Source: an uncultured Actinomycetes bacterium (lineage in GTDB: Bacteria > Actinomycetota > Thermoleophilia > Gaiellales > Gaiellaceae). From it: DNA of 64,000 nucleotides. A program made the position numbers and the translations under genes. Location: NCBI GenBank assembly GCA_963827705.1, contig CAWHBN010000001.1, forward strand, positions 41,973 through 105,972. The letters are read 5' to 3'. The notes beneath the pieces are model-generated. The model was given only the letters and a program-made list of their open reading frames with translations, searched no databases and had not been told where the DNA came from. Positions 2,648 to 55,465 of the stretch are shown one piece after another. Within the stretch, counting starts at the first letter, position 1; every line of letters begins with the position of its first letter.

Positions 2648-2663
2648 AACGCTCCGAGGGGCA

Positions 2664-2680
2664 AGTAACAACGTGTTACT
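2664..2680. promoter_or_regulatory. AT-rich palindrome AGTAACA-ACG-TGTTACT (candidate operator, copy 2), overlapping the wzx start codon
   Basis: 7-bp arms. This is the second copy of the 22-nt repeat, and the GTG start of the flippase ORF (2673) lies inside it. Confidence 0.5.
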
Positions 2681-16751: not shown

Positions 16752-16896
16752 TCCGACGAGCCAAGGTCAGAAGACCTTGGTGAGGAGGAGGGTGGGCTCT
16801 GGCGCAGCGTGATCGCGGGCCAGAAACCGGCATGCATTGCTGGATGGGGCACCGAGTCAACCATTCGACGGAGGGACGTAGTATCCGGCTCCGGGG

Positions 16897-23789: not shown

Positions 23790-24578
23790 CTAGAGGCCGT
23801 ACCTCGAGAGGAACGCCCGCGCGGACGGAGTGTCCGTACGCGAGGACACATTCGTCGAATAGCACGGGACGTCACCGGTGGAGGTGACGGCGAGCACGAC
23901 GTCGCCGTCGTTCGGTGCTGCGCCGAGGAACGTGGGGCCGCCGGAGTCGCCGTAACAGGCCCCGCTGTCGCCGTGTGCCGCGTTCTGGCTCATCTTCAGC
24001 GCATCCGTTGTGAGCGCATTGAAGCCGCCGATCCCGTATCCGCGGTCACCCTCGAACGGGAACTGCGGGCCGTTCTCGCCCTTGACGATGATCTTCTCGC
24101 TCGTTCCGTACCCGACGACGGTCAGCTTCGTCTTCTGGTTGAGCCCGAGCGTGTCGAGGTAGCCGACCGTGGTCGGAACCTGCGCAAGCGGAATGGACAC
24201 CGGCGCAGCGGTCTTGAGCACCATCACGGAGACGTCGCTCTTGTAGCCGCCGCGATAGGCCGGGTTCGTCACCGCCGTCGCCTCGATCAGCCCGCTCGGG
24301 AACGGCTCGATGTCCGTCTCATCGAAGGTGACGTAGTCGGGCCGCGGATCGGCCTCCAGGAACGCGGTGCAGTGGCTCGCCGTCAAGAAGATCGTGCGCG
24401 AGACCAGGGTCCCCGAGCAGACCTCCGCGTAGCCGACTCCGCTGCGCGCCGGAACCATGATCGCTCCGACGTTCGGATGCAGACCGTTGTCCGGGAAGCC
24501 GTTCGTGGTCACCGCCTGGGCGCCGGCGGCCCACACGCTGCAAGCGGCGAGAGCCGCGACAAGCAGCAATTTCTTCAC
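23790..24578 (-). CDS. Secreted trypsin-like serine protease (S1 family)
   Basis: GTG 24578 follows AAGGGGGGA. Signal peptide VKKLLLVAALAACSVWAAGAQA; catalytic motifs TASHC and GDSGGP. Confidence 0.85.
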   Translation of the reverse strand: MKKLLLVAALAACSVWAAGAQAVTTNGFPDNGLHPNVGAIMVPARSGVGYAEVCSGTLVSRTIFLTASHCTAFLEADPRPDYVTFDETDIEPFPSGLIEATAVTNPAYRGGYKSDVSVMVLKTAAPVSIPLAQVPTTVGYLDTLGLNQKTKLTVVGYGTSEKIIVKGENGPQFPFEGDRGYGIGGFNALTTDALKMSQNAAHGDSGACYGDSGGPTFLGAAPNDGDVVLAVTSTGDVPCYSTNVSSRTDTPSARAFLSRYGL

Positions 24579-24613
24579 GTTTCCCCCCTTCCTGCGATTG
24601 GAAGGGGCGGATC

Positions 24614-25576
24614 CTAACTCCGATATAGAGAGTTCTGTACTTCTCTCGTCGCCACGAAGACCTGGGAGCCTTCCTCGAGCTCGAGCTGCTCGGCTTCCGA
24701 CTTCGTCATCTGCACCCACACCTCTCGGCCGTCCTCGAGCGCGAGGTCGGCGCGCACCTCGAAGCCGAGGTGGACGACCCGCTCGACCGTCGCACGCTCG
24801 GCCGACCCGTTCGGCTCGCGCCGCACCTCGATGTCGTGCGGGCGGACGAGCTCCTCGCCGAAGCTCGAGACGGGCCCGATGAACGTCATCACGAACTCGT
24901 TCGCCGGCCGCTCGTAGAGGTCGCGCGCACCGCCGATCTGCTCGACACGGCCCTCGTTCATGAGGACGATCTGGTCGGCGATCTCCATCGCCTCTTCCTG
25001 GTCGTGCGTCACGAAAATGGTCGTCACGTGCACCTCGTCGTGGAGGCGGCGGAGCCAGGCGCGGAGCTCCTTGCGAACACGCGCGTCGAGGGCGCCGAAC
25101 GGCTCGTCCAGGAGCAGCACCTTCGGCTCGACGGCGAGCGCCCGTGCGAGCGCCATCCGCTGTCGCTGTCCGCCCGAGAGCTGCGCCGGATAGCGCTTCG
25201 CGAGCCCGCCGAGCTGGACGAGGTCGAGGAGCTCGCCGACGCGCTCCTTGATCTCCGCCTTCGGCCGCTTGCGGATGGTCAGGCCAAACGCGACGTTGTC
25301 CCAGACGGTCATGTGCTTGAAGGCCGCGTAGTGCTGGAAGACGAAGCCGACGCCCCGCTTCTGCGGCGAGACGGTCGTCGCCTCCTCGCCCGAGATGAAG
25401 ACCTCGCCGGCGTCGGGCTGCTCGAGCCCGGCGATCACGCGAAGCAGCGTCGACTTCCCGCTGCCGCTCGGCCCGAGCAGCGCTGTCAGCGAGCCACTCT
25501 CGACCTCGACGGACACGTTGTCGATCGCCGTGAAGTCGCCGAAGCACTTCGAGACGTTGCGGACCTCGATCGCCAT
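24614..25576 (-). CDS. cysA: Sulfate/thiosulfate ABC transporter ATP-binding protein
   Basis: [15 protein letters not shown]...[12 protein letters not shown]...LSGGQRQR...LLLDEP, with a CysA-type C-terminal regulatory domain. The start overlaps the cysW stop (TGATG). Confidence 0.9.
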
Positions 25577-26364
25577 CAGTGCTCGTCCTTTCGGAGCAGA
25601 GTCATCGCCAGCAGCGTCATGACGGCAAGGAGCGCGAGCACGACCGAAGCCGCGTACGCATCCTGCACCTCGAACGCCTGGAACCGCTCCTCGACGTGGA
25701 GCGTCATCGTCTCCGTGCGGCCGGCGATCCGCCCGGAGACGACGCTGACCGCGCCGAACTCGCCGAGCGCACGAGCGGTGGTCAGGACAACGCCATAGGC
25801 AACTCCCCAGCGGATCGCGGGAAGCGTCACGCGCCAGAAGGTCTGCCAAGAGGACGCACCGAGCGTGGCGGAGGCCTCCTCCTGCTCGTCGCCGATCTCA
25901 CGCAGGACGGGGACCACCTCACGGACGACGAACGGCAGCGAGACGAAGATGGTCGCCAGCACCATCCCGGGCAGCGCAAAGATCACCTGGAAGCCGTTGT
26001 CGATCAGCCAGCCGCCCCACCAGCCCTGGCGTCCGTACACGAGAACCAGCGCGAGCCCGACGACGACCGGCGACAGAGCCAGCGGCAGGTCCACGATGCT
26101 GTTCACGAGCCCGTGGCCGCGGAACTTCCGGCGAACGATCGCGAGCGCGCACATGATCCCGAAGACGGTGTTCAGAGGCACCGCGATCAACGCGATCAAG
26201 ATCGTCAGCCAGAGGGCGTGCAACGCCTCCGGCGTCGTGATCGCCGCGAAGAACTCTGCAATCCCGTCCTCGAACGCACGGAACACGACCAGCCCGACCG
26301 GGACGATGAGCAGCGCGGCGAGGTAGCCGAGCGCGGCGAATCTCAGGACGTACCTAGAGGTCAT
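25576..26364 (-). CDS. cysW: Sulfate ABC transporter permease
   Basis: 262-aa ORF with the EAA-loop region [22 protein letters not shown] and [15 protein letters not shown]. Confidence 0.9.
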
Positions 26365-27176
26365 GCCTCGTGGCCCAGCGGCGCACGCCGCCGATCGCGA
26401 GCAGAACTCCGAGCGAGGCGACGAGCAGGACGACGGACACGGCGGCCGCGCCGGTGACGTTGTCGCTCTCGATCTGCCCGAAGATGTAGACGGACGCGAC
26501 CTCGGTCTTGAACGGCTGGTTGCCCGGAGATCAGGACGACGGCGCCGAACTCACCGAGCGCTCGGGCGAACCCGAGCGCCGTCCCCGACAGGATCGCCGG
26601 GAACAGGTTCGGGAAGACGACTCGCCTGAAGGTCTGGAGCGGTGTGGCGCCGAGCGAATGCGCCGCCTCCTCCATGTCGCGGTCGAGCTCGAGCAGCACC
26701 GGCTGCACGGTGCGGACGACGAACGGCAGGGTCACGAACAGCAGCGCGAGAACGAGCGCCCCCGTCGTGTACGCGACGTTCACTCCGATCGGGCTCCGCG
26801 GGCCGTAGAGCGCGAGCAGCGTCAGGCCGGCGACGATCGTCGGAAGCGCGAAGGGCAGGTCGATTAGCGCGTTCACCAGGCTCTTGCCGCGGAACGAGTC
26901 GCGGACGAGCACCCAGGCGGTCACCGTCCCGGCGACGGCATTGATCAGCACCACGCCGAGCGAGATCGCGAAGGTGAGCTTGAGCGCAGCGACCGCCTGC
27001 GGCTCGGTGATCGCATCCCAGAAAGCCTGTGCTCCGCCCTCCATGGAGCGGAGCACGAGCGCTGCGAGCGGGATCAGGACGATCACGCTCAGGTATCCGG
27101 TCGTCACGCCCAGGCTGAGCGTGGCTTCACGCCGCCTCCGGAGCGGTTTGGCGACCGGTTGCGCGACGCTACTCAA
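26354..27176 (-). pseudogene. cysT: Sulfate ABC transporter permease CysT interrupted by a +1 frameshift (extra G in a G-run at 26523-26525)
   Basis: The listed ORF ends in an Arg-rich tail (..VLISGQPAVQDRGRVRLHLRADRERQRHRRG). Shifting one base after ISG restores [55 protein letters not shown]. This is collinear with the E. coli CysU C-terminus as I recall it and ends at TAG 26354. Confidence 0.8.
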
Positions 27177-28170
27177 GGGCTGCGCCGACCTCCCTCTGAA
27201 TGCCCGCCATGATCCCGTCCTCGCGGTCGAAGAACGTCTTCTGCACCTCGTCCCAGCCGCCAACGTCCTCGATCGTGAAGAGGTCGGGCGGGGTAGGGAA
27301 CTGGAACTCGCCGGCGACCGCCTCGTTCACCGGCCGGTAGCCCGCCTTGCCGAAGACGCGTTGCGCCTCCTCCCCGCGGATGTAGTCGAGGAAGCCAGCC
27401 GCCTGTTCAGGCGTGTCCTTCGTCACCGCGACGGGGTTCTCGATCAGGATCGTCTGGTCCGGCACGACGTAGTCGAGGTCCTCGCCCTTCTCCTGGGCCA
27501 GGATCGCCTCGTTCTCGTACGCGAGCAGGACGTCGCCCTTCCCGCCGGTGAAGGTCTGGAGCGATTCGCGCGCGCTCTTGTCCTGGACGGAGACATGCTT
27601 GAAGAGCTCGCCGAGGTACTCGACTGCCTGCTCGTGCGTCTTGCCGAGCTTCCTCTGCGCGCCGTAGGCCGCCATGACGTTCCACCGCGCTCCGCCCGAG
27701 GTGAACGGGTTGGGCTCGATCACCTCGACGCCGTCCTTGACCAGGTCGTCCCAGGTCTTGATGCCCTTCGGGTTCCCTTTCCGGACTGCGAAGACGACGA
27801 CCGAGTTCGTGACCATGCCGTTGTACTGGTCATCGGCCCAGGTCTCGGCGACCTGACCGGACTCGACGAGCCGATCGACGTCCGGCGCGAGCGAGAAGGC
27901 GACGACGTCGGCCGGCAGTCCTTGCTCGACGGCGCGGCTCTGCTCGCCCGAGCTGCCGTACGACTCGTCGAACGAGACGCCCTTGCCGGCGTCCGTCTTG
28001 GCGAAGTCCTTCGTCAGCTGCGCATAGACCTCGCGCGGTGTCGAGTACGCGACGAGCGTCAGCTTCGCGCCGTCGGAACCGGCTTCCGCCGACTCCTCCG
28101 ACGTCCCGCCGCACGCCGTGACCAACGCGGCTACGGCAATGGCGGCGAGTGCCAGAATAAGAGAACGCAT
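27169..28170 (-). CDS. sbp: Sulfate/thiosulfate-binding lipoprotein
   Basis: ATG 28170 follows AGGAGG. Lipobox LVTAC. Sbp-like sequence LVAYSTPREVY...GSSGEQSRAV..G..ADV... Confidence 0.9.
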   Translation of the reverse strand: MRSLILALAAIAVAALVTACGGTSEESAEAGSDGAKLTLVAYSTPREVYAQLTKDFAKTDAGKGVSFDESYGSSGEQSRAVEQGLPADVVAFSLAPDVDRLVESGQVAETWADDQYNGMVTNSVVVFAVRKGNPKGIKTWDDLVKDGVEVIEPNPFTSGGARWNVMAAYGAQRKLGKTHEQAVEYLGELFKHVSVQDKSARESLQTFTGGKGDVLLAYENEAILAQEKGEDLDYVVPDQTILIENPVAVTKDTPEQAAGFLDYIRGEEAQRVFGKAGYRPVNEAVAGEFQFPTPPDLFTIEDVGGWDEVQKTFFDREDGIMAGIQREVGAALE

Positions 28171-28191
28171 GGGGCCTCCTGAGATTGGAAA

Positions 28192-28212
28192 CGCTAATTT
28201 CACGGATTAGCG
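28192..28212. promoter_or_regulatory. Palindrome CGCTAAT-N7-ATTAGCG upstream of sbp (shared motif, copy 1)
   Basis: 7-bp perfect arms, 22 nt upstream of the sbp ATG and 2 nt downstream of a candidate -10 element. The same GCTAAT-N7-ATTAGC occurs at 34064-34082. Confidence 0.5.
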
Positions 28213-28214
28213 GT

Positions 28215-28243
28215 TTCTATCCGGGAGGCCTCTGCGCTGTCAA
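28215..28243 (-). promoter_or_regulatory. Candidate promoter for sbp-cysTWA
   Basis: On the minus strand: TTGACA (28243-28238), a 17-nt spacer, then ATAGAA (28220-28215). Confidence 0.35.
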
Positions 28244-28249
28244 GTCGCA

Positions 28250-29398
28250 TCAGGCGCGGTAAGCCTCGATCAGCACCTCGGCGACCTCGGGCCGCGAGAA
28301 CTCCACGGGCGGGACCTCGCCGTTCGTCAGCATCTCCCGCACCTTCGTTCCCGACAGGAACACGTGGTCGTCGCCGCCGTGCGGGCAGGTCTTCGGCGAG
28401 ACCATCGCCTCGCAGCGCTTGCAGTAGACGGCGTGCTCGAAGAACATCGGCTCGATGTCGAGCTCGTGCGGCTCGAACTCGTCGAAGATCTGCTGCGCGT
28501 CGTAGGAGCCGTAGTAGTCGCCGACGCCGGCGTGGTCGCGGCCGACGATGAAGTGCGAGCAGCCGTAGTTCTTGCGGCAGATCGCGTGCCAGATCGCCTC
28601 CCGCGGGCCCGCGTAGCGCATGGCCGCCGGGAAGGCGGAGACGACGACGCGGTCGGCCGGGTAGTAGTTGTCGACGAGCACGCGGTAGCAGTCGACGCGC
28701 GTCTTGGCCGGAACGTCGTCCTGCTTCGTGTCGCCGACGAGCGGGTGGATCAGAAGGCCGTCGACGGTCTCGAGCGCCGTCTTCGTCAGGTACTCGTGCG
28801 CCCGGTGGATCGGGTTGCGGGTCTGGAAGCCGACGATGCGCTTCCAGCCACGCTTCTCGAACTCCGCGCGGGTCTCCGCGGGATCGAGCGCGAGCTCCGG
28901 GAAAGGCGGCACGGCCCGCTCGAAGACCGTGACCCGGCCGGCGAGGTAGAGCGGCTTCTGCGCGTAGAGGCGCGCCACTCCCGGGTGGGCGTCGTCGGTG
29001 GTGCGGAAGCACTGCTCGGCCTCACGTTCCTTGTCGTACTCGTAGGTCTCCTCGACCTCGAGCACCGCGACGAGGCGGCCCGATTCGTCGGCGAGCGCCA
29101 CGCGATCGCCCTCGGGCGCCTTGTCGACTGCAAGGCAGACCGGCAGTGCCCACGGGAGGCCGCTCACGAGGCGCATCTCCTCGACCACGCGCTCGTAGTC
29201 CTCTCGGCCCATGAAGCCCTCCAGCGGGCTGAGAGCGCCCGAGGCGAGCATGTCCAGGTCGGACAGCTCGCGGGACGTCAGCGTGACGACCTCGAGCTGC
29301 TCGACGTCGTCCGGCCGCTCGCCGGTGCGGTCGACGAGCTCCCCGCCGTGTGGCTCGATCAGACCTGTCCCAGTGACTGTCACTGAGGCGTGGCTCAT
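28250..29398 (-). CDS. sat: Sulfate adenylyltransferase (ATP sulfurylase)
   Basis: 382-aa ORF with [18 protein letters not shown] and [10 protein letters not shown]. Confidence 0.92.
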
Positions 29399-29947
29399 GC
29401 GGCCACCTCGGCCGGGACGAGGCCCAGCTCCTCGAGCTTGGCGACGACGATCTGCGCGGACTCCTCCGGCTCGTGCTCCTCTGTGTCGATCCGAAGCTCC
29501 GGGCTCTCCGGCTCCTCGTACGGATCCGACACCCCCGTGAACTCCTTGATCTCGCCGCTGAAGGCCTTCTCATAGAGGCCCTTGACGTCGCGGCGGGCGC
29601 ACTCCTCCACCGAGGTCGCAATGAAGACCTCGACGAAGCGTCCATGCCCCTCGACCATGCTCGCGGGCGTGCCGCCGCGTCTCCTCGTAGGGCGAGATCG
29701 CGGAGACGAGCACCGCGGCGCCGTGTCGCGTCAGCCGCGAGGCGACCCAGCCGATGCGCTCGATGTTGGTGTCGCGGTCCTCCTTCGAGAAGCCGAGGCC
29801 CTTCGAGAGGTGGGTGCGGACGACGTCGCCGTCGAGGTACTCGACGAGGTGGCCGCGGCGCTCGAGCTCGGGGCCGACGATTTCCGCGATCGTCGTCTTC
29901 CCGGCCCCCGAGAGCCCGGTGAACCAGAGCGTGAATCCGTCAGGCAT
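29395..29947 (-). pseudogene. cysC: Adenylylsulfate (APS) kinase split by a +1 frameshift (extra base at about 29659)
   Basis: The N-terminal part [19 protein letters not shown]...[12 protein letters not shown] is in ORF 29570..29962. The C-terminal part [29 protein letters not shown]... is in ORF 29395..29658. The junction reads CGC GAG C ATG GTC, and removing one base joins them seamlessly. Confidence 0.85.
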
Positions 29948-30653
29948 TGGTCTCCTTCGCATCGATGGGTGTGTCCAGATGGATGCCGCACTCGAGCTTG
30001 TCCGAGCCGGCCCAGCGTCCGGCCCGCTCCTCCTCGTCGGGCGCGGTCGGGCGGGTGCAGGGCATGCAGCCGATCGACCGGTAGCCGGCGTCGTGGAGCG
30101 GGTTGAACGGGATCTCGTTGACGTGGATGTAGAGCCAGACCTTGCGCTCGTCCCAGTCGGCGAGCGGGTGCACCTTCCAGACGCCGTAGCGCTCCGACCA
30201 CTGCAGCTTCGGCGTGGTGGCGCGGCTCGGCGACTGGTCTCGCCGAATCCCGCTGATCCAGGCGTCGTACGGCTTCAGCGCGTCGAGGAGCGGCTCGACC
30301 TTGCGGATGTGGCAGCAGCGGTCGGGATCCCGCTCCCAGAGGTTCGGGCCCTCTTGCTTGTGCTGCTCGGCGACGGTAATCACCGGCGGGGGCGGCAGCA
30401 GGCTCAGGCCGTAGCGCTCAACGAGCCGGTCACGCGTGTCGTAGGTCTCGCGGAAGAAGAGATGCGTGTCGAGCTCGACGATCGGGACGTCGAGGCCGAG
30501 CTCCGAGACCATGTGGACGAGGACCGACGATTGCTTCTGCCAGGAGCAGGTGAGGCAGAGCTTGTCGCCGTACTCCTCGTGGGCCCAGCGGAGCAGGTCC
30601 TCCGCGGACATGGCTTCGACGTCCTGTTCAGGAAGCGGGGGCGCGGTCGCCAA
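29940..30653 (-). CDS. cysH: APS/PAPS reductase, Fe-S (APS reductase) type
   Basis: Cys pairs RCCHIRK and SIGCMPCT plus the catalytic ECGIH tail. As far as I recall, this CC...CxxC set marks 4Fe-4S APS reductases such as those of M. tuberculosis and P. aeruginosa. Confidence 0.88.
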
Positions 30654-31374
30654 GGAGCACCTCCTTCAATGTGTCGGCGCGAAGCCCGCGCCGGAGTGTC
30701 TCGAGCGGGATGGCTTCCTCGGGCGGGATGTTCCCGAGGTTCACGGTCGGCCCGAAGCGCTTCACGAACCAGGCCTGCGCGGCCTTGGTCGGCGCCTCGA
30801 AGATGACGTCGTCGAGGTCGACGGCGGAGCCGATCTCCTCGACCAGGTCGGTGCGCATGGCGCCGTCCGACGTGAAGATCCCGGAGCTCGCGCCCTCGCG
30901 CGCTTCGGTGATCACCTTCCAAGCGCCGGCGTCGAGCTCCTCGCGGAGCCACTGCGTCCACTCCTCGGACGTGAACTCGACGGAGGAATCCTTCGAGCCG
31001 ACCTCGGAGAGGACCGTGAAGTCGCGAGCCAAGTCTGCGATGAGCTCCAGCTTCTGCTCGCGCGGAATCTCGACGGCGCCGTCCGAGACCTCGACGTGGT
31101 CGAGCCCGAGGTCGGCGAGCCACTGCTTGTAGCGGTCGAGCTGGCCGGTGGCCCAGACGGCTTCGAAGAACGTCCCGCCGACGACGACGCGCTTCTCGCG
31201 CAGGACGTCGAGCTTCTTCCGGAGGTTCGCCGTGACGAAGGCGGTGCCCCAACCGAGCTTGACGACGTCGATGTAGAGGCCGCTCGTCTCGAGCACGTCC
31301 TCCCAGGCGCGCGGCCCGAGACCCTTGTCGAGGACATGCGTCAGCCCGCCTTCGGGCGCCTCAAAGCTCAGCAA
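30628..31374 (-). CDS. comA: (2R)-phospho-3-sulfolactate synthase (ComA family)
   Basis: Collinear with my recollection of M. jannaschii ComA: GLTHVLDKGL, DVVKLGWGT, GGTFFE, VEVSDG, EVGSKD, LDAGAWKVITEAREG, VIFEAPTKAAQAWFVKRFGPTVNLGNI, PLETLRRGLRADT. Confidence 0.85.
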   Translation of the reverse strand: MLSFEAPEGGLTHVLDKGLGPRAWEDVLETSGLYIDVVKLGWGTAFVTANLRKKLDVLREKRVVVGGTFFEAVWATGQLDRYKQWLADLGLDHVEVSDGAVEIPREQKLELIADLARDFTVLSEVGSKDSSVEFTSEEWTQWLREELDAGAWKVITEAREGASSGIFTSDGAMRTDLVEEIGSAVDLDDVIFEAPTKAAQAWFVKRFGPTVNLGNIPPEEAIPLETLRRGLRADTLKEVLLGDRAPAS

Positions 31375-31945
31375 GGATCTTCTCCAGGCGCTCGTTCGCC
31401 GCCTCGTTGACGTCGTGGAACATCGAGTTGCCGTGCGAGTCGATCCCGACCCAGAGCGGGCCGAAGTCCTTGACGCGGAACTTCCAGAGGCACTCCGGCA
31501 TCAGCTCCTCCCAGGCGACCTCCTCGATCTCCTCGATCTGGGTCGTCTCGAGTGCCGCGGCGCCGCCGACGATCGCGAAGTAGACCATCCCGTGCTCGCG
31601 CATCGGCTCGATCGCCTCGTCGGGCAGGCCGCCCTTGCCGCAGATCGCGCGGACGCCGTAGTCGCGGCCGAGCGGCTCCGTGAAGCGCACCATGCGCGCG
31701 CTGGTCGTCGTGCCGATGCAGACGGGGTCGTAGCCGCCGTCGTCCCGCTTGCGGACTCCCGGCGCGGTGTGCAGCAGAAATGCGCCGTTCAAGTCCATCG
31801 GCGGCGCGATGCCCTGGTCGAAGATCCGGATCTGCGTGCGGTCGCGGATCCCGATGATGTGCCCGTCCACGGTGACAAGGTCGCCGGCGCGAAGCTTGCG
31901 GGTGTCCTCTTCCGAGGCCGGGAATGTGAGTCTGTGCTCGGCCAT
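31361..31945 (-). CDS. Fe-S hydro-lyase beta subunit (class I fumarate hydratase / tartrate dehydratase beta-type, Fumerase_C)
   Basis: ATG 31945 follows GGGAGG. The sequence GDLVTVDGHIIGIRDRTQ...TTTSARMV...AICGKGGL...YFAIVGGAAAL is typical of FumB/TtdB-like beta subunits. Confidence 0.8.
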   Translation of the reverse strand: MAEHRLTFPASEEDTRKLRAGDLVTVDGHIIGIRDRTQIRIFDQGIAPPMDLNGAFLLHTAPGVRKRDDGGYDPVCIGTTTSARMVRFTEPLGRDYGVRAICGKGGLPDEAIEPMREHGMVYFAIVGGAAALETTQIEEIEEVAWEELMPECLWKFRVKDFGPLWVGIDSHGNSMFHDVNEAANERLEKILAEL

Positions 31946-31947
31946 TC

Positions 31948-32850
31948 CTATGCCTCCCGGTCGTACTCGACGGAGCCGTCGGCGCCGATATGCGCGGAGG
32001 CGCGCCGCGCCGCCCAGCACTGGTAGTTGACGGCCACCGGGTTCAGCGTCATGTGCGTGTCGGCATGCTCGATGTGGCACTGAAGGACAGTGACGTCGCC
32101 GCCGAGCCCCATCGGGCCGATCCCGGTCTCGTTCAGCAGCCGGTAGAGGTCATCCTCCAGCTCCGCGACCAGCGGGTCGGGGTTCCGGGTGCCGACGGGC
32201 CTGGCGATGGCCTCTTTCGCGAGGTGCATCGCGTAATCGGCCGAGCCGCCGATCCCCACTCCGACGATTCCGGGCGGGCAGGGCTTCCCGCCGGCGCCGA
32301 CGATCGACTCGAGCACGAACTGCTTGATCCCCTTCACGCCGTCGGCGGGGACGCACATCTTGAGGAAGCTCATGTTCTCCGAGCCCGATCCCTTCGGGAC
32401 AGACTTGACGTCGAGGCCGTCCCAGTCCGAGACGAAGTCCCAGTGGACGATCGGGACCCTGTAGCCGACGTTCGGCCCCGTGTTCTCGCGCGTGAGCGTG
32501 TGGACGATGTTCGAGCGCAAGGGGTGGTCGAGCGTCGCGCGCATCGTCCCGTCGTAGAGCGCCTGGTAGATCCGGGCGGGGTGGAGCGGAAAGTGCTCGC
32601 CGACCCGGCAGTAGTAAACGGCGATCCCGGTGTCCTGGCAGACCAGGTTGTTCTCGCGTTCTGCCACCTGGACGTTCTTGAGGATCGTCTGGAGGACGCG
32701 CTGACCGGGAATGGACGTCTCCTTTCGGGACGCGTCCGCCAGGGCGTCGCGGAGGTCCTGGGGGATGTCCTTCAGCGCCCAGACGTAGAGGTGCGCCGCG
32801 GCATCCTCGACAGATTGCTGCAGCGTACCTAGGGCGCGTAGCGCGCTCAT
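31948..32850 (-). CDS. Fe-S hydro-lyase alpha subunit (class I fumarate hydratase / tartrate dehydratase alpha-type)
   Basis: ATG 32850 overlaps the flavoprotein stop (ATGA). Motifs LVCQDTGIAVYY, VPKGSGSENMS and PPGIVGVGIGGSAD. Confidence 0.8.
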   Translation of the reverse strand: MSALRALGTLQQSVEDAAAHLYVWALKDIPQDLRDALADASRKETSIPGQRVLQTILKNVQVAERENNLVCQDTGIAVYYCRVGEHFPLHPARIYQALYDGTMRATLDHPLRSNIVHTLTRENTGPNVGYRVPIVHWDFVSDWDGLDVKSVPKGSGSENMSFLKMCVPADGVKGIKQFVLESIVGAGGKPCPPGIVGVGIGGSADYAMHLAKEAIARPVGTRNPDPLVAELEDDLYRLLNETGIGPMGLGGDVTVLQCHIEHADTHMTLNPVAVNYQCWAARRASAHIGADGSVEYDREA

Positions 32851-34061
32851 GCCGCCGCCTTCTCCGCCGCCGCCTTGCCGGCGCGACGGCCGAACACCGT
32901 GCACTCGAGCAGCGAGTTGCCCATCATCCGGTTCCTTCCGTGCGTGCCGCCGGCGATCTCGCCGGCCGCGTAGACCCCTTCCAACGTCGTCTCTCCCTGC
33001 TCGTCGATCACGAGCCCGCCGTTCTGGTAGTGGAGCACCGGGTAGGTCAGGATCCGCTCCTTTAGCGGGTCGATCCCGCCTGCGCGGTAGCGGCGGAGCA
33101 TGTACGGGAGCGATACCTCCGCGTCAGCCTCAGCGATCCGGGTCGTGTCGAGGTAGACCGCAGGGCGGCCGTCCTCGGTCTCGACGCCCCTCCCGTTCTC
33201 GACCTCGTCGAAGATCGCCTGAGAGACCTCGTCGCGCGGCCCGAGGGAGTCCGTGAACTCCTCGCCGTCGGCGTTGAGCAGGACCGCGCCGTAGGCACGC
33301 GTGGTCTCCGGGATCGAGTAGCCCTGCATGTTCTCGGGCCAGGCGCCGCCGTTCGGGTGGTACTGGAGCGCGTCAAGGTCCCGCGACTCGGCACCCAGAG
33401 CAAGCGCGAACTGCGTCACCTCGCCCGTCGCTCCCGGATGGTTCGTCGAGAGCTCGCCGCGCTCCTTCGCCTCGCGGAAGCAGCGGCCGCCTGCGGCGAG
33501 GACGACGGTCGCGGCCTCGATGTCGTGTTCCCCGCACCGCGCTAACCAGCCGTTCTCGATCTCCTTGAGCTCCGTCAACGGCGACTTCGGAAACGCGGTG
33601 CCGGAGCCCGACTCGAACGCGTCCTTCAGCGCAGACGTAATCGCGAGACCGGTCCGGTCGCCGACCTGGAGCAGACGCTTGCGAGTCGCGCCGCCGCAGC
33701 GTGCGAGCCGGTAGCCGCCGTTCTCGCGCGTGAACTGGACGCCGAGCTCCTCGAGCCAGTGGATCGCCGGCGGCGCCTCCGACGTGAGGATCTCGACGAG
33801 GCGGCGATCGGCGGTTTCGTGCGAGCTATGCCAGACGTCCTCGGCGTGGATCTCTGGGGTGTCGTCCTCGCCGAACGCGGCCTGGATCCCGCCCTGCGCC
33901 TTGGCCGAATTGCAGGACTGAAGCGCGCCCTTGGTTGCCAGTGCGACCCGCGCGCCGGCCCGCTCGGCGGAGACGGCGGCCGCGAGGCCGGAGGCCCCCG
34001 ATCCGATCACGAGCACGTCGAAAGAGAGCTTGCCGCCCACGACTGCGATCCTACCACCCAT
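32847..34061 (-). CDS. Short (about 400 aa) FAD_binding_2 flavoprotein related to fumarate reductase/succinate dehydrogenase flavoprotein and L-aspartate oxidase
   Basis: Motifs DVLVIGSGASGLAAA, SAKAQGGI (no His at the covalent-FAD position), QYHPNG (compare QFHPTG) and GRNRMMGNSLLE (compare ANRLGSNSLLE). It lacks the C-terminal helical domain. The start may be GTG about 21 nt downstream. Confidence 0.8.
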   Translation of the reverse strand: MGGRIAVVGGKLSFDVLVIGSGASGLAAAVSAERAGARVALATKGALQSCNSAKAQGGIQAAFGEDDTPEIHAEDVWHSSHETADRRLVEILTSEAPPAIHWLEELGVQFTRENGGYRLARCGGATRKRLLQVGDRTGLAITSALKDAFESGSGTAFPKSPLTELKEIENGWLARCGEHDIEAATVVLAAGGRCFREAKERGELSTNHPGATGEVTQFALALGAESRDLDALQYHPNGGAWPENMQGYSIPETTRAYGAVLLNADGEEFTDSLGPRDEVSQAIFDEVENGRGVETEDGRPAVYLDTTRIAEADAEVSLPYMLRRYRAGGIDPLKERILTYPVLHYQNGGLVIDEQGETTLEGVYAAGEIAGGTHGRNRMMGNSLLECTVFGRRAGKAAAEKAAA

Positions 34062-34063
34062 GC

Positions 34064-34082
34064 GCTAATCGCACGTATTAGC
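34064..34082. promoter_or_regulatory. Palindrome GCTAAT-N7-ATTAGC upstream of the flavoprotein gene (shared motif, copy 2)
   Basis: 6-bp perfect arms, 2 nt downstream of the A/T hexamer TAATGA on the minus strand. The geometry matches the sbp copy. Confidence 0.5.
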
Positions 34083-34119: not shown

Positions 34120-34407
34120 ATGGTCAAGACGATCGGCCTCGTCGGGATCCTCTGCGCTGCGGCAATCCTCGGGATGACCTGGGCGCGCCAGAGCTTCCAG
34201 GCGACGGAGAAAGCGCCCGCTGCCATCCTCCAGGCGGCTGCGACGGTCCTCGAGTTCAATCACCGGACGACCGGCACATACGACGCAGGGAAGGTCGAAA
34301 CCGTCACGCTCGCCTGGGCGGACCAGTCCCGGTACTGCATCGAGTTCGGCGGCCAGCACATCGCCGGTCCCGGCGGCACGCCGACCACCGGCGACTGTCC
34401 GCGCTAA
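34120..34407 (+). CDS. Small membrane-anchored or secreted hypothetical protein
   Basis: 95-aa ORF with an N-terminal hydrophobic segment MVKTIGLVGILCAAAILGMTWA, divergent from the sulfur operon. Coding status is plausible but unproven. Confidence 0.5.
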   Translation: MVKTIGLVGILCAAAILGMTWARQSFQATEKAPAAILQAAATVLEFNHRTTGTYDAGKVETVTLAWADQSRYCIEFGGQHIAGPGGTPTTGDCPR

Positions 34408-35354
34408 TAGATCGACTGGAACAGCTCGGCGATCTCGGCCGGTGACGCAGGCCTCGGGTTCGCCTTTGCCCCAGCGCGCTGGGCGGTCGCCTCGGCGACG
34501 ACGTCCAGCTCCTGCTCAGGGACGTCGAAGTCGCGCAGCCGCTCGAAGCCCCCGAGCCGCGCCAGCTCCTCCACGCGATCCGCCGCGTGGTCGGCGCCGA
34601 TCGACTTCCCGAAATCGTCGATCGCCTCCGTCGCAACCGGCTCGTTGAACCGGAGCGCGGGCGGCAGGCACAGCGCGTTCATCGCGCCGTGCGGAAGGCC
34701 GTAGCGGCCGCCGAGTGCCTGCGCCATCGCGTGGCCGAGACAGAGGCCGGAAAGCCCGAGCGCTTCGCCCGCGCGTGCGGCTCCTTTCAGCAGGGTCTTC
34801 CGAGGGCCGAGCGCCCCGAGGTTCTCGAGCACGGCGGGTAGCGAGCCGTTGATCAGCTCTGCGCCTTCGTGCGCGGCCCGATCGGACTCGGGGCTCCGTG
34901 CCGGGTGGTACAACGCCTCGGCGGCGTGGGCCAGCGCGTTGAGCGCGGTGCCCGCCGTCTCCTCCCGGAGCAGGTCGAGCGTCAGCTCCGGGTCGTAGAC
35001 GATCGCCGCGAGCTTCGCGTCGCCTCCGCCGCCGACCATCCGCTTGTCGGGGTCGCGAACGCCGTAGAACGGCGTCCACTCCGAGCCCGAGTACGTCGTC
35101 GGAACCGAGACGAGCGGCAAACCGCTCGCCGCCGACGCCGCCTTGGCCGTGTCGATGGCGCTGCCGCCGCCCACCGCGAGCACGCCGTCGACGCCCTCCG
35201 GCACCTCGATCCGGTGCGACGGGATCTCCTCCCAGCGTGCCGCCGCGGGAAGTTCCAGTGGGCTCCACCGCGGGCTTGCGACCAGAAAAGGCCGCTCGAT
35301 CCCCAACTCGCGGAGGACGCCCGGTAGCTCCTCCAGGCCCCAGCGGACGATCAC
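34404..35354 (-). CDS. Iron-containing alcohol dehydrogenase family protein (maleylacetate reductase-like)
   Basis: 316-aa ORF with AVGGGSAIDTAKA and the His-rich site LCLGHAMAQALGGRYGLPHG. Confidence 0.8.
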   Translation of the reverse strand: MIVRWGLEELPGVLRELGIERPFLVASPRWSPLELPAAARWEEIPSHRIEVPEGVDGVLAVGGGSAIDTAKAASAASGLPLVSVPTTYSGSEWTPFYGVRDPDKRMVGGGGDAKLAAIVYDPELTLDLLREETAGTALNALAHAAEALYHPARSPESDRAAHEGAELINGSLPAVLENLGALGPRKTLLKGAARAGEALGLSGLCLGHAMAQALGGRYGLPHGAMNALCLPPALRFNEPVATEAIDDFGKSIGADHAADRVEELARLGGFERLRDFDVPEQELDVVAEATAQRAGAKANPRPASPAEIAELFQSIY

Positions 35355-36241
35355 GGGATTCGCTCGCGCGCGAAGGCGACGAACGCCTCCGCGACCCTGC
35401 TCGGCGTCCGGCCGGTCGAGCGGACCAGCGAGATCTCGCGAGTCGGCGCCAGCCCCTCGACTGTCGCAGCCGCGAGGGTGCCCGCCGCCAGCTCCGGCTC
35501 GATCGAGGACCTGGAGATGAACGTGACGCCGTGACCGGCGGCAACCGCCGCTTTCACCGACTCCTGCAGCCCCAGCTCGAGCTTCACGTCGAGGTCGCGG
35601 AGCCGCACGCCGCCGGCCCGCAGCTCGTCCTCGACCATCTGCCTGACCCCGGCTCCCTCCTGCATGAGGATCACCGCCTCGGCGCGAAGATCGTCGAGCT
35701 TCACGGTCGCGCCGGCGAGCTTGTGGCCCGGCGGGACGGCGAGCACGATCTGGTCCTGGAAGAACGGCTCGAAGGTCACGGCTCGATGGCGTGGCGCCGC
35801 CCCGACGACGCCGAGCTCGAGCCGCCGCTCCGCCACGAGGTCGATCACGTGCAGCGTGTCGTTGACCGAGAGCGAGATCGCGACGTCAGGGTTCTCGCGC
35901 TGGAACTCGCAGAGCAGGAGCGGAAGGACGGTCGCGCCGGGGCCGGTCGAGCAGCCGATCTCGAGCCGGCCGCGCAGTTCGTCGCTCTCGCCGGAGACCT
36001 CCTCCAGCAGCTGCTGCTCGAGCGCCAGCATCCGCTGAGCGCTTCGGTACAGCCGCTGGCCGGCCTCGGTCGGCTCGACCCGCCGCCCGGAGCGGTCGAG
36101 GAGCCGCTCGCCGAGCCGCTTCTCGAGCGAACGGATCTGGAGACTGACCGCAGGCTGGGTGACGCCGAGCTGCTCGGCCGCGAGCGAGAAGCTCTTCCGG
36201 TCGACGACGGCGCAGAAGGCCGCAAGCTGACGAGTGTCCAT
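35351..36241 (-). CDS. LysR-family transcriptional regulator
   Basis: MDTRQLAAFCAVVDRKSFSLAAEQLGVTQPAVSLQIRSLE is a textbook LysR helix-turn-helix. The 3' end overlaps the Fe-ADH start by 4 nt. Confidence 0.9.
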   Translation of the reverse strand: MDTRQLAAFCAVVDRKSFSLAAEQLGVTQPAVSLQIRSLEKRLGERLLDRSGRRVEPTEAGQRLYRSAQRMLALEQQLLEEVSGESDELRGRLEIGCSTGPGATVLPLLLCEFQRENPDVAISLSVNDTLHVIDLVAERRLELGVVGAAPRHRAVTFEPFFQDQIVLAVPPGHKLAGATVKLDDLRAEAVILMQEGAGVRQMVEDELRAGGVRLRDLDVKLELGLQESVKAAVAAGHGVTFISRSSIEPELAAGTLAAATVEGLAPTREISLVRSTGRTPSRVAEAFVAFARERIP

Positions 36242-38205: not shown

Positions 38206-38892
38206 GTGCAGACTCGGTCGCAGAGCTCGCTTACCGAGAGCTTCATCCGGCGCGCCCGCGAGAGCCCGCGGCGCAACCGTGTCGACGCCGTCCTGCGCGG
38301 CCTCGACATCGGCCTCTCGCTCGTCTTCGCCGCACTCGCGCTCATCCCGGTGGCGTTGATCTCGCTCGCCATCGTCCTGTCGAGCGGTAGGCCGGTGCTC
38401 TACCGCGGCACGCGGGTCGGGCGGGGCGGCGAGTTCTACACGATGCTCAAGTTCCGAACGCTGCGCCGAGGCGCCGAGCAACGGCTCGGCGCGCATCTCG
38501 GCGAGGAGCTCGTCTTCCGGACGAAGGAGGAGCGGACGACCGTCGGGGGCTGGCTGCGAGCGACGCAGCTGGACGAGCTCCCGCAGCTCCTCAACATCCT
38601 CCGCGGCGACATGAGCTTCGTCGGGCCGCGGCCGATCCGGCCGATCTTCTTCGAGCAGCTTGCGTCGGACTTGCCGGCGTACTGGCAGCGCCTCGTCGTG
38701 CGCCCGGGTCTGACGGGGTTCGCGCAGGTGCGGCGCGGCTACGAGACGTCGATGGCCGAAAAGCTCGCGCACGACATGGAGTGGATCGCCGACCGCTCCG
38801 TCGGCCTCTACCTGCGGACGCTCGCCGCCACCGGCTGGCGCGTGCTGCGCCAGTCGCTGCGCGGGGCGGTCCGACCGACGCGCGTAGAGTGA
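38206..38892 (+). CDS. Polyprenyl-phosphate sugar-1-phosphate transferase (bacterial sugar transferase, WbaP/EpsL-like)
   Basis: 228-aa ORF with one TM helix, KFRTL, DELPQLLNILRGDMSFVGPRP and RPGLTGFAQV. Confidence 0.85.
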   Translation: MQTRSQSSLTESFIRRARESPRRNRVDAVLRGLDIGLSLVFAALALIPVALISLAIVLSSGRPVLYRGTRVGRGGEFYTMLKFRTLRRGAEQRLGAHLGEELVFRTKEERTTVGGWLRATQLDELPQLLNILRGDMSFVGPRPIRPIFFEQLASDLPAYWQRLVVRPGLTGFAQVRRGYETSMAEKLAHDMEWIADRSVGLYLRTLAATGWRVLRQSLRGAVRPTRVE

Positions 38893-38898
38893 GGCGCC

Positions 38899-40779
38899 GT
38901 GTGTGGGATCTGCGGACTCGCAACTAAGAGCGGGCCGGTCGACCCCGAGCGCCTGCGCGCGATGAGCGCCACGCTCGTCCACCGCGGCCCCGATTCCGAC
39001 GGCGAGCTGCTCGACGGTCCGGTCGGGCTCGCCGCGCGCCGGCTCTCGATCATCGACCTGGAGGGCGGCGACCAGCCGATCGCGAACGAAGACGGCACCG
39101 TCCACGTCGTCCAGAACGGCGAGCTCTACAACTTCCGGGAGCTGCGGGCGGAGCTGGAGCAGGCCGGGCACCGATTCTCGACCCGCTCCGACACCGAAGT
39201 GCTCGTCCACCTCTACGAGGAGCACGGCGAGAACTTCGCCGAGCGGCTTCGCGGGATGTTCGCCGTCGCGATCTGGGACTCGCGCCGCCGCCGGCTCGTG
39301 ATCGCGCGGGACCGGTTCGGCATCAAGCCGCTCTACTACCGGGACGAGGCCGGCGAGCTCGCGTTCGCGTCCGAGCTGCGCGCCCTCCCCCGCGGCGAGG
39401 TCGACCCGGACGCGCTCGAGGCGTTCCTCGCCTTCAACTCGGTGCCGGCGCCGTATTCGATCTTCACCGGAACGCGCAAGCTGCCCGCCGGGCATCTCCT
39501 CGTCTGGGAGGACGGCGAGACGCGGGTCGAGCGATACGCACGGCCGATGCCGGCCGAGGTGCGTGACGAGGATTCCGCCGAGCTGGCCGAGGAGCTGCGC
39601 GCTCGTCTCCGGGACTCCGTGCGGGCGCACCTGATCGCCGACGTCCCCGTCGGGGTGTTGCTGTCCGGCGGCGTGGACTCGTCTCTCCTCGCGGCGCTCG
39701 CCGCCCAGGAGAGCGGCGAGGAGGTGCACACGTTCTCGATCGGGTTCGAGGAGCGCTCGTTCGACGAGCTCGACGACGCGCGCTCCGTCTCGTCCATGTA
39801 CGGGACGCGCCACGAGGAGCTGACGCTCAGGCCCGACGCCGCGCTGCTCCTGCCGCGACTCGCCGAGACCTTCGACGAGCCCTTCGCCGACTCGTCGGCG
39901 CTTCCGACCTACCTCGTCTCGGAGCTGGCGGCGCGGCACGTGAAGGTCGCGCTCTCCGGGGAGGGCGGCGACGAGCTCTTCGGCGGCTACTACACCTACG
40001 CCGCCGACCTGCTGGCGCTCCGCGTCGGCCGTTTCGCCCCAGGGGTCAGGCCCCTGGTGGAGCGGCTGCCGAGCTCGAGCCGCCGGGCGAGCTTCGACTA
40101 CAAGGCGAAGCGGTTCGTCCGCGGGGCCGCGTTGCCCCCGCTCGAGCGGCACCACGCCTGGAAGGAGATCTTCTCCCCGGACTTGCGAGCCGAGCTGACC
40201 GGCCGTCGGTCGGCTTTCGATCCTGTCGACCTCCTCCGCGCCCGCTTCGAGGAGACGGAGGGCGCCGAGCTGTTGACGCGACTCCAGGACGTCGACCTCG
40301 GCACCTACCTCGTCGACGACCTGCTCGTAAAGACCGACCGGGCCTCGATGGCGCACTCGCTCGAGGCGCGCGTGCCGTACCTCGATCCCGTCGTCGCCGG
40401 TCTTGCGCAATCGCTGCCGACCCGCCTCAAGGTCCGAGGGCTGCGGAAGAAGGTCCTGCTGCGGAAGGCCGCGGCGCCGCTCCTGCCACGGCGAATCGTC
40501 TACGGCCGCAAGCGCGGGTTCTCGATCCCGGCCGCGGCCTGGCTCCGCGGCGAGCTCGAGCCGTTCGCGCGTGACGTGCTCGCTCCGGGCACGCTGCGCC
40601 GGCAGGGCTTCTTCAGGCCCGAGCCGGTCGAACGGCTGATCGACCGCCACGTCGCGGGCGAGGAGGATCTCTCGCGCCAGCTGTGGGGGCTGCTCGCCTT
40701 CACGCTCTGGCACGAGCACCACGTGGAGCGCACGCCCGGCCCGCTGCGCGAGCCGCGGCTCGCCGCAGCCGTCGCTTGA
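38899..40779 (+). CDS. asnB: Asparagine synthase (glutamine-hydrolysing) family amidotransferase
   Basis: MCGICG N-terminal nucleophile and the SGGVDSS PP-loop, 626 aa. Confidence 0.9.
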   Translation: MCGICGLATKSGPVDPERLRAMSATLVHRGPDSDGELLDGPVGLAARRLSIIDLEGGDQPIANEDGTVHVVQNGELYNFRELRAELEQAGHRFSTRSDTEVLVHLYEEHGENFAERLRGMFAVAIWDSRRRRLVIARDRFGIKPLYYRDEAGELAFASELRALPRGEVDPDALEAFLAFNSVPAPYSIFTGTRKLPAGHLLVWEDGETRVERYARPMPAEVRDEDSAELAEELRARLRDSVRAHLIADVPVGVLLSGGVDSSLLAALAAQESGEEVHTFSIGFEERSFDELDDARSVSSMYGTRHEELTLRPDAALLLPRLAETFDEPFADSSALPTYLVSELAARHVKVALSGEGGDELFGGYYTYAADLLALRVGRFAPGVRPLVERLPSSSRRASFDYKAKRFVRGAALPPLERHHAWKEIFSPDLRAELTGRRSAFDPVDLLRARFEETEGAELLTRLQDVDLGTYLVDDLLVKTDRASMAHSLEARVPYLDPVVAGLAQSLPTRLKVRGLRKKVLLRKAAAPLLPRRIVYGRKRGFSIPAAAWLRGELEPFARDVLAPGTLRRQGFFRPEPVERLIDRHVAGEEDLSRQLWGLLAFTLWHEHHVERTPGPLREPRLAAAVA

Positions 40780-41144
40780 GCGACCTGCCGCCGTTCGAGC
40801 TCGGGTACGCCCGGACCGAGCTGCGCCGCAGGCTCGTCGAAGCGGTGCTCGCCGGAAGGAAGACGGCGACCGCGGGACTGGCCGAATCGGGCGAGCCGGA
40901 GGACAAGCCGGGCGAGCGCTATGCGCTTCTCGGCTACGACGACGAGCCGGTCGGCGTCGTCGAGGTCACCGAGGCGCGAGTCGTACCGGCGTCGGAAATC
41001 GACGAACAGTTCGCCCGCGACGAGGGCGAAGGTTTCGAGTCCGTTGAGGAGTGGCGAGTCGACCACGAGCGCTTCTTCGAGCGGCCGATCGAGCCCGACA
41101 CGCTGATCGAGGCCGTGCGCTTCCGGCTCGTCGAGGACGGCTGA
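40776..41144 (+). CDS. ASCH domain protein
   Basis: TTG 40776 overlaps the asnB stop (TTGA). The sequence LVEAVLAGRKTATAG...YALLGYDDEPVGVVEVTE...FARDEGEGF fits the ASCH fold pattern. Confidence 0.65.
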   Translation: MSDLPPFELGYARTELRRRLVEAVLAGRKTATAGLAESGEPEDKPGERYALLGYDDEPVGVVEVTEARVVPASEIDEQFARDEGEGFESVEEWRVDHERFFERPIEPDTLIEAVRFRLVEDG

Positions 41145-55460: not shown

Positions 55461-55465
55461 CGAAT

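Follow-up and report, generated by a model that had tools for sequence, protein, structure and literature searches.

A 64-kb stretch of DNA from an uncultured soil bacterium of the Gaiellaceae (contig CAWHBN010000001.1; the whole stretch is hereafter called the window) carries genes for sulfate import, activation and reduction joined to a putative phosphosulfolactate synthase gene (comA), a class-I Fe-S hydro-lyase pair and a short fumarate-reductase-like flavoprotein gene, and it raises the question of what is made from the sulfite. On the minus strand, the gene string runs flavoprotein, Fumerase alpha (FumA), Fumerase beta (FumB), ComA, CysH, CysC and Sat, followed by sbp-cysTWA. An earlier note, read from the sequence alone, had proposed these identities and this order together with the absence of sulfite reductase, CysK, ComB, ComC and ComDE; Pfam and NCBIfam profile scans of about 60 open reading frames (ORFs) across the window confirmed the former, save for Sbp, CysW and CysA, which are assigned from their translations, and found no domain of any of the latter among the ORFs scanned. 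We favour, with moderate confidence, the interpretation that the locus is a regulated operon making a C3 sulfonate, 3-sulfopropionate, from sulfate and phosphoenolpyruvate (PEP).

The gene identities, their order and conservation, the clade structure and the conserved catalytic residues described below were observed directly; the substrates, the direction in which the flavoprotein works, its electron donor and what becomes of the product are what we infer from them. Sbp-CysTWA would import sulfate, Sat would activate it, and the Fe-S-type CysH would reduce adenosine 5'-phosphosulfate (APS) to sulfite, with CysC alongside. ComA would then combine PEP and sulfite into (2R)-phosphosulfolactate, and the FumA/FumB-like hydro-lyase would form sulfoacrylate, either directly from this phosphoester or from (2R)-sulfolactate after the action of an unlinked phosphatase. 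Finally, the flavoprotein would reduce the C=C bond of sulfoacrylate, yielding 3-sulfopropionate.

Conservation of the operon and identity of ComA

The nearest public DNA, the Gaiellales metagenome-assembled genome (MAG) CAVTCN010000039.1, shares ~90% nucleotide identity over the operon and 88–100% identity at the protein level, and the G+C content in the window is 67–71%. The family is large: all 8000 scored candidates reached E <= 1e-20 and the best 120 were at least 85% identical; the few named organisms among these relatives were Gaiellaceae MAGs. A scan of one genome per species, conducted with alignment A2 (A1, comprising 15 distant flavoproteins, was too divergent), identified 80 loci, all from Gaiellales or other Thermoleophilia, 71 of which were long enough to be informative. 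The order flavoprotein-FumA-FumB-ComA was kept in 69 of these 71 Gaiellales loci, with flavoprotein identities as low as 57%. Since the identical order recurs so widely, the gene arrangement is far beyond chance, and the linkage of comA, hydro-lyase and flavoprotein, which the earlier note had wished to see compared across genome neighbourhoods, proved to be conserved. In the other two loci (L044 and L081; L numbers denote loci and contigs of this analysis), ComA directly adjoins the flavoprotein without FumAB. In the sister order Miltoncostaeales, the genes run LysR-flavoprotein-ComA-Sat with no eliminase adjacent, and the flavoprotein-ComA-Sat version is carried by the cultured Miltoncostaea marina (complete genome CP064655.1).

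Around this constant core, the sulfite-supply genes vary. They consist of Sat-CysC-CysH, with or without sbp-cysTWA, of a different CysH (42–47% identical) accompanied by CysC, of CysH-CysD-CysN in L028, or of a TauE-family permease alone. A TauE/SafE-family permease gene (PF01925) was located downstream of the operon in 43 related loci, such as L004, L020, L028 and L053, and a DUF4395 gene in 13; in the window, the position of TauE/SafE is taken by sbp-cysTWA. This permease may take up sulfate or sulfite, or may export the sulfonate. The exchange of the supply module around an unchanging core gives good grounds for regarding sulfite as what that core consumes, and it supports the earlier proposal that sulfite formed by Sat, CysC and CysH is consumed by ComA.

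Reading of the sequence revealed that the frames of the seven genes from flavoprotein to sat overlap or abut, and the junctions first listed in the earlier note were all correct. The flavoprotein and alpha genes have a common ATGA at 32847-32850, alpha and beta are separated by a 2-nt gap, and overlaps of 14, 26 and 8 nt link beta to comA, comA to cysH and cysH to cysC, respectively; cysC and sat again have a common ATGA, and 79 nt separate the sat stop codon from the sbp ATG (at 28170). TTG appears to be the start codon of both comA and cysH.

The window ComA exhibits clear similarity to B. subtilis YitD (1U83; phmmer E 5e-53) and M. jannaschii ComA (1QWG; phmmer E 8e-46), and 34 residues are invariant across 16 aligned ComA sequences including XcbB, YitD and MjComA. 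On these grounds it is taken to be a phosphosulfolactate synthase. Its score lies far above the Pfam PF02679 gathering score (264.5 vs 25.2 bits) and below the cutoff of the NCBIfam archaeal ComA equivalog TIGR03849 (226 vs 280 bits), an archaeal model that bacterial ComAs may also miss. In a ComA tree, the sequences grouped as the flavoproteins did (see below), apart from XcbB, YitD and MjComA.

ComA-flavoprotein cassettes in other phyla

A metagenome scan with distant short flavoproteins, followed by inspection of the contexts of relatives of the L086 protein, revealed nine contigs from other organisms with 31–59% G+C (L085, L086, L166-L169 and L173-L175). One of them is a Magnetovibrionaceae MAG, and L086, L166 and L167 carry type IX secretion sorting-domain genes. 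In all nine, a flavoprotein of 403–425 aa adjoins a Lyase_1 protein and an ATP-grasp or AMP-binding enzyme; ComA is also present in eight, none having been seen in L167, and a PAPS (3'-phosphoadenosine 5'-phosphosulfate) reductase gene occurs in L086, L166 and L167. The Gaiellales operon would be one version of a wider cassette built on ComA and a short flavoprotein.

The Lyase_1 protein provides the key to the elimination step. Compared directly with XcbC (Xaut_5053), the L085 and L086 proteins showed 33–36% identity over their full length (E 2e-94 and 1e-95), and L086 was only 21% identical to XcbD. The best plasmid matches of the L086 protein, headed by sequences from Methylocystis plasmids, include the coenzyme M (CoM)-pathway lyases of Xanthobacter, Nocardioides JS614 and Mycolicibacterium NBB4. 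In the Xcb pathway of Xanthobacter autotrophicus Py2 (XcbA-E), which like the route proposed here starts with a ComA homologue (XcbB) and proceeds by elimination to sulfoacrylate, XcbC converts phosphosulfolactate to sulfoacrylate by elimination of phosphate (PMC9457059). XcbC-like genes were found only in the other-phylum cassettes, where an XcbC-like phosphosulfolactate lyase would take the elimination step, and the same slot is filled in the window by the unrelated class-I Fe-S pair. Two unrelated eliminases in one slot point to non-homologous displacement, and this shared slot is the strongest argument for the sequence PEP + sulfite to phosphosulfolactate, sulfoacrylate and 3-sulfopropionate. 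Further differences separate the two systems: the Xcb cluster lacks an FRD (fumarate reductase)-like flavoprotein, which is the constant partner here; no XcbC, XcbD, XcbE (a pyridoxal phosphate enzyme) or XcbA was found among the window ORFs scanned; and the predicted product is 3-sulfopropionate rather than CoM. A LysR gene is adjacent to both.

The Lyase_1 comparisons also bear on a scheme in which the ComA homologue adds sulfite to fumarate, producing sulfosuccinate, while FumAB, Lyase_1 and the flavoprotein supply the fumarate. What recommends this scheme is that the three partner families may be regarded as classically fumarate-forming. It is nevertheless highly improbable, given that ComA keeps the 34 residues invariant with named phosphosulfolactate synthases and that the Lyase_1 proteins of L085 and L086 are XcbC-like (~1e-95), whereas the best plasmid matches of L086 to true ArgH reach only 1e-44 to 1e-56.

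The nine cassettes, found in marine and other bacteria, lie within glycan clusters, among genes for glycosyltransferases, DegT aminotransferases and sugar dehydratases or epimerases; genes for Wzy polymerases, flippases, NeuB, PglD and PIG-L also surround them. A carboxylate-activating ligase is adjacent in every one of these cassettes, a carrier-protein gene lies near that of L169, and in L174 a PIG-L de-N-acetylase and an ATP-grasp gene directly precede the flavoprotein. Since a ligase adjoins the cassette inside glycan clusters, 3-sulfopropionate probably becomes attached to an amine of a glycan at the cell surface, or else is exported; export of the free acid is the alternative fate suggested by MFS transporter genes located just upstream of the flavoprotein gene in several Gaiellales loci. 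The position of the cassette in glycan clusters hints at a new anionic glycan decoration. Two of the clusters also contain a sulfotransferase gene (L167 1522-2268 and L175 12794-13735), and the glycans of L167 and L175 may carry both sulfate esters and sulfonate groups.

Glycan-biosynthesis genes likewise flank the operon in the window (686-6743, 16053-18429 and 38206-45079), where they encode two ATP-grasp ligases, a flippase, GT1, a PIG-L deacetylase, Wzy_C, Bac_transf, an AsnB-like amidotransferase, DUF354, a PglF-like dehydratase and a DegT aminotransferase. Near the flavoprotein-ComA genes of Miltoncostaea, the DegT-DUF354-dehydratase trio is found again. Among 54 Thermoleophilia loci of at least 18 kb, a DUF354 gene lies within 10 kb in 45, FlgD_ig in 39, a PglF-like dehydratase in 32 and Wzy in 25, and in the deep-branching L074-L077 an ATP-grasp gene is divergently adjacent to the core. 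Three window genes resemble genes of the other-phylum cassettes: the ATP-grasp at 4636-5826 matches the L174 cassette ligase (36% identity, E 1.7e-84), the PIG-L at 16053-16751 matches that of L174 (50% identity, E 5e-83), and the L-amino-acid-ligase-type ATP-grasp at 686-1936 is related to the ligases of L086, L166, L167 and L173 (E down to 2e-39). These genes lie 8–30 kb from the operon, and their link to it is suggestive only. The broader proposal, namely a hitherto unrecognised, phylum-spanning pathway that leads from PEP and sulfite to 3-sulfopropionate by way of ComA, an eliminase and a new clade of sulfoacrylate reductases, and whose product ATP-grasp or adenylating ligases then attach to amino sugars of surface glycans as a sulfonated acyl group, with the class-I 'fumarase' recruited as the sulfolactate or phosphosulfolactate lyase in Gaiellales, is put forward as a tentative one, possible but rather less probable than otherwise.

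The flavoprotein and the hydro-lyase pair

The flavoprotein consists of FAD and capping domains only, without the C-terminal helical domain. Its AlphaFold model (pLDDT 92) found E. coli FrdA as the best fold match in Foldseek (E 3e-36), with a TM-score of 0.87–0.88 over the query and 0.62 over the target. Conserved throughout the clade are His235, Glu252, Arg255, Arg276, His344 and Arg378, which we take to correspond to the residues that bind the substrate and deliver protons in soluble fumarate reductases; a clade-wide Thr to Pro change occurs in the xTE loop, beside a conserved Glu. The fold, the catalytic His235-Arg276-His344-Arg378 site and the Glu-Arg-Arg proton path are thus common to this protein and FrdA, Fcc3 and NadB. 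In contrast to those enzymes, it is only ~400 aa long and has no Fe-S or cytochrome partner, no FrdB/SdhB-like gene having been found in the window; nor does it carry the covalent-FAD His, SAKAQGG standing where the flavinylation His would be expected. It is proposed to be a sulfoacrylate reductase, because an FRD-type enzyme is the natural reductase for sulfoacrylate, an analogue of fumarate.

Alternatively, the flavoprotein could oxidise or dehydrogenate a 2-substituted sulfonate, converting sulfolactate to sulfopyruvate in place of ComC or handling cysteate in the manner of NadB, so that the locus would produce sulfopyruvate, cysteate or CoM by a new route. NadB is indeed its best NCBIfam match (2e-72), FRD and succinate dehydrogenase (SDH) flavoproteins can oxidise malate slowly, and a substitute for the ComB, ComC and ComDE missing from the window is imaginable. 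However, the protein falls below every NCBIfam cutoff, including that of NadB itself (TIGR00551, 244 vs 452.75, over profile positions 2–390 of 489), and a Cys is aligned with NadB Glu121; identification as an L-aspartate oxidase was rejected on its short length, its score and this replacement. Furthermore, the adjacent eliminase, FumAB or XcbC-like, makes an enoate, the natural FRD substrate, and the partners in other phyla are carboxylate ligases in glycan clusters. Neither the window nor the related cassettes contain XcbD, XcbE, XcbA, ComDE or CoM-dependent enzymes, and a new CoM route was rejected for the lack of the first four. An oxidative role is therefore distinctly unlikely, and sulfoacrylate reduction remains the preferred assignment.

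In a neighbour-joining tree of 93 sequences, all ComA-linked flavoproteins (405–428 aa) fell into one clade, which spans Gaiellales, Miltoncostaeales and the other-phylum contigs and lies apart from relatives of ~460–480 aa. In contigs from gut and sediment (L106, L107, L112, L122, L126, L127, L134-L136, L144 and L148), members of this other group repeatedly adjoin class-I FumA-FumB in the absence of ComA, and there they probably form a soluble module converting malate to fumarate and succinate. As the flavoproteins belong to different clades, inheritance of the Gaiellales flavoprotein-FumAB set from such ComA-less modules was rejected.

FumA and FumB resemble the two-subunit fumarase of M. 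jannaschii (MjFH, 7XKY) in their cluster cysteines and all substrate contacts (1.8e-73 for FumA against 7XKY_A, 3.9e-34 for FumB against the beta subunit). The cysteines in CQDTG, KPCPP and QCWA align with Cys133, Cys252 and Cys346 of LmFH, and FumA exceeds the fumarate hydratase cutoff NF004885 (304.5 vs 276). FumB, in contrast, falls short of the fumarase beta equivalog NF004708 (159 vs 269) and of TtdB NF006082 (154.9 vs 264), passing only the generic domain model TIGR00723 (150.8 vs 145.15). It retains the malate-contacting residues of MjFH (Arg, Thr-Thr, Arg and Lys), and it carries Gaiellales-specific changes (RDxAH to RD[RA]TQ, GPTTS to GTTTS and PEA to PEC) at positions that archaeal fumarases and the ComA-less modules otherwise keep. 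According to the residue list for class-I fumarases (bioRxiv 10.1101/2022.09.03.506457), the beta subunit supplies five of the nine substrate contacts, and it is in beta that the changes at conserved positions fall. Also unlike MjFH, the window FumB frame overlaps comA, and FumA shares its ATGA with the flavoprotein gene. By Cahn-Ingold-Prelog priority rules, (2R)-sulfolactate is spatially arranged like L-malate. The evidence leans towards FumAB acting on sulfolactate rather than directly on the phosphoester, because the alpha contacts to the C2 hydroxyl (Asp62 and Gly147) and the cluster cysteines are unchanged, and the gene context argues for sulfolactate/sulfoacrylate over malate/fumarate as its substrates.

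These observations allow a more conventional explanation to be weighed, in which an ordinary fumarase and a soluble fumarate reductase, taking malate to fumarate and succinate, merely have their operon and regulator in common with a sulfolactate module of the B. subtilis type, with sulfolactate or phosphosulfolactate as the end product. The yit sulfolactate operon of B. subtilis, which we take to encode Sat, CysC, a CysH-like protein, ComB and ComA, similarly joins a sulfate activation and reduction set to ComA; the window differs from it in lacking the ComB phosphatase and in adding the hydro-lyase pair and the flavoprotein. The passing score of FumA and the intact substrate contacts are what an ordinary fumarase would show, and flavoprotein-FumA-FumB sets without ComA occur in many unrelated contigs (L107, L112 and L122 among them). 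Those sets, however, use the other flavoprotein clade, whereas in almost all loci examined, from at least three lineages, the ComA-linked clade adjoins ComA, also where its partner is an XcbC-like lyase. Moreover, the seven window genes overlap or abut, and FumB misses its equivalog cutoff and has lineage-specific substitutions. This conventional explanation is hence unlikely. The conserved linkage, the ComA-linked clade and the XcbC-like replacement instead support the claim of the earlier note that the ComA product is processed by the hydro-lyase and the flavoprotein.

Several points weigh against the sulfopropionate interpretation. All ten known fumarase active-site residues are kept and FumA passes its cutoff, so that malate is compatible as a substrate by sequence alone. 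Window and operon encode neither an electron donor partner for the flavoprotein nor a ComB-type phosphatase, and no eliminase is adjacent in the three Miltoncostaeaceae loci or in L044 and L081, where a housekeeping enzyme could suffice or the gene could lie elsewhere in the genome. The flavoprotein tree is a neighbour-joining tree without bootstrap support, and the enzyme activities of the ComA-linked clade are assigned from sequence. Lastly, cysC and cysT are frameshifted in this copy, as described below.

Regulation, gene integrity and biological context

The putative regulatory sites and the genes of the locus are compiled in Table 1.

Table 1. Positions in the window of the operon, the importer genes, the upstream genes and the palindromic sites.
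Feature	Position	Strand	Basis or remark
LysR-family transcriptional regulator	35351..36241	-	Pfam HTH_1 + LysR_substrate; NCBIfam NF040786 262.6 vs cutoff 250
Short iron-type alcohol dehydrogenase (Fe-ADH), 316 aa	34404..35354	-	Pfam ADH_Fe_C 4.5e-32, Fe-ADH 4.7e-14
Palindrome GCTAAT-N7-ATTAGC, putative operator	34064..34082		2 nt upstream of flavoprotein ATG
Minimal fumarate-reductase-like flavoprotein, 404 aa	32847..34061	-	FAD_binding_2 8e-64, residues 15-384; putative sulfoacrylate reductase
Class-I Fe-S hydro-lyase alpha (FumA)	31948..32850	-	Fumerase 3e-89; putative sulfolactate/phosphosulfolactate eliminase
Class-I Fe-S hydro-lyase beta (FumB), divergent	31361..31945	-	Fumerase_C 5e-28
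ComA, putative phosphosulfolactate synthase (PEP + sulfite)	30628..31374	-	PF02679 1e-78
CysH, APS/PAPS reductase, sulfite-forming	29940..30653	-	PAPS_reduct 5.5e-49; NF002537 257.5 vs cutoff 154
CysC, APS kinase, frameshifted	29395..29947	-	Two ORF pieces matching APS_kinase
Sat, ATP sulfurylase	28250..29398	-	PUA_2 + ATP-sulfurylase 5e-102; NF003166 540 vs cutoff 387
Second copy of GCTAAT-N7-ATTAGC, putative operator	28193..28211		~22 nt upstream of sbp ATG
Sbp, sulfate-binding lipoprotein	27169..28170	-	Assigned from translation: lipoprotein signal peptide
CysT permease, frameshifted, start codon uncertain	26354..27167	-	BPD_transp_1 7e-18
CysW permease	25576..26364	-	Assigned from translation
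CysA, ABC ATPase	24614..25576	-	Assigned from translation: Walker A + ABC signature motifs

An identical 19-bp palindrome precedes both the flavoprotein-to-sat operon and sbp-cysTWA. Exactly two matches exist in the 64 kb even when up to two mismatches are allowed (chance expectation 0.17), and both are perfect. A site of the type [GAT]CTAAT-N7-ATTAG[CG] is located 15–65 nt upstream of the flavoprotein gene in ~40 related loci, and the same type precedes sbp in L005, L007 and L073. The palindrome at both 5' ends links the sulfate importer with the flavoprotein-to-sat operon under a common regulator, which, judging from its adjacency, is likely the LysR protein; most Gaiellales loci, and all three from Miltoncostaeaceae, have a LysR gene upstream of that for the flavoprotein. 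In the window, a scan for sigma-70 promoters gave no matches, terminator matches were at chance level, and Rfam identified no riboswitch or other RNA.

LysR and Fe-ADH are encoded upstream of the flavoprotein gene on the same strand, the LysR stop codon overlapping the Fe-ADH start, with a stretch of 342 nt before the flavoprotein gene. Because this gap holds a 95-aa ORF on the opposite strand (34120-34407, +), LysR and Fe-ADH constitute a separate transcription unit. The ORF has a signal-peptide-like N-terminus and high G+C at third codon positions (GC3), and no Pfam family was found for it; its position is occupied by a 93-aa gene in L004 and by an MFS transporter in L001-L003. The Fe-ADH, which has 316–317 aa in relatives as well, is an accessory, Gaiellales-specific gene: several Gaiellales loci lack it, as do Miltoncostaea and all the other-phylum cassettes examined. 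No hidden phosphatase or ligase was found in the gaps between Fe-ADH and flavoprotein genes of relatives, which hold only MFS transporters, regulators, a GTPase, a methyltransferase and a peroxidase.

Profile pieces and three-frame translation revealed a +1 frameshift in each of cysC and cysT, which the earlier note had missed. In cysC, the break lies near 29655-29660, the N-terminal piece matching APS_kinase profile positions 2–95 and the C-terminal piece, in another frame, positions 99–152; there is one base too many relative to L009, and CysC is intact, with 199 aa, in relatives. In cysT, the C-terminus runs on in another frame from near 26520, with one extra base, within a C/G run, relative to L005, L007 and L073. 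Two such shifts within ~3 kb, both in genes whose counterparts in relatives are unbroken, would be expected if the operon were decaying and the pathway non-functional in this genome. Both, however, are single-base insertions, one of them in a C/G run; broken genes also occur in some of the nearest-relative MAGs (FumB in L084, flavoprotein/FumB in L079), whose 'MFD' prefix we take to denote long-read assemblies; and every other operon gene is intact with high GC3. For these reasons, assembly error is probably the better explanation, and real decay is quite improbable. The CysH translation shows a CC...CxxC cysteine motif, and the importer proteins are well conserved in L005 and L007 (Sbp 88–91%, CysW 92–97% and CysA 95–97% identity).

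Other genes of the window were recorded in passing. A secreted trypsin-like serine protease gene (23790-24701, -) lies directly downstream of cysA, and the long ORFs in the list on either side of it are artefacts of high G+C. Two large tandem genes (58121-60571 and 61401-63974, -) each combine adenylate/guanylate cyclase, STAND NTPase (NB-ARC) and TPR repeats, and a 757-aa ORF (53865-56138, -) unites UbiE/COQ5 methyltransferase and polyprenyl synthetase domains, which may be a true fusion or a reading-frame artefact.

In relation to known systems, the operon has ComA in common with the methanogen CoM pathway (ComA-ComB-ComC-ComDE), whose remaining enzymes were not found among the window ORFs scanned. 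No description of the gene set, of a sulfoacrylate reductase or of a sulfopropanoyl or sulfolactyl glycan group was found in the literature searched, nor any assignment of the set to a characterised pathway. The view that the locus represents a third way of processing a ComA-derived sulfonate thus holds as regards an undescribed gene set, but its independence was overstated: most likely, this is a ComA-based sulfonate route that has phosphosulfolactate, and probably also sulfoacrylate, in common with the Xcb pathway of bacterial CoM synthesis and branches off at sulfoacrylate.

Only a few biogenic sulfonate routes are known, among them those to coenzyme M, sulfolactate, cysteate and taurine, sulfoquinovose and sulfonolipids, and it is poorly explained where the large share of sulfonates in soil organic sulfur comes from. 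The locus adds a likely new branch, from sulfoacrylate to 3-sulfopropionate, which rests on two enzyme functions without prior description: the reduction of sulfoacrylate by an FRD-like flavoprotein and the processing of a sulfonate by a class-I Fe-S hydro-lyase. Gaiellales are very abundant in soil metagenomes, and, if the proposal is true, this pathway could supply a sizeable part of the biologically made sulfonate sulfur in soil.

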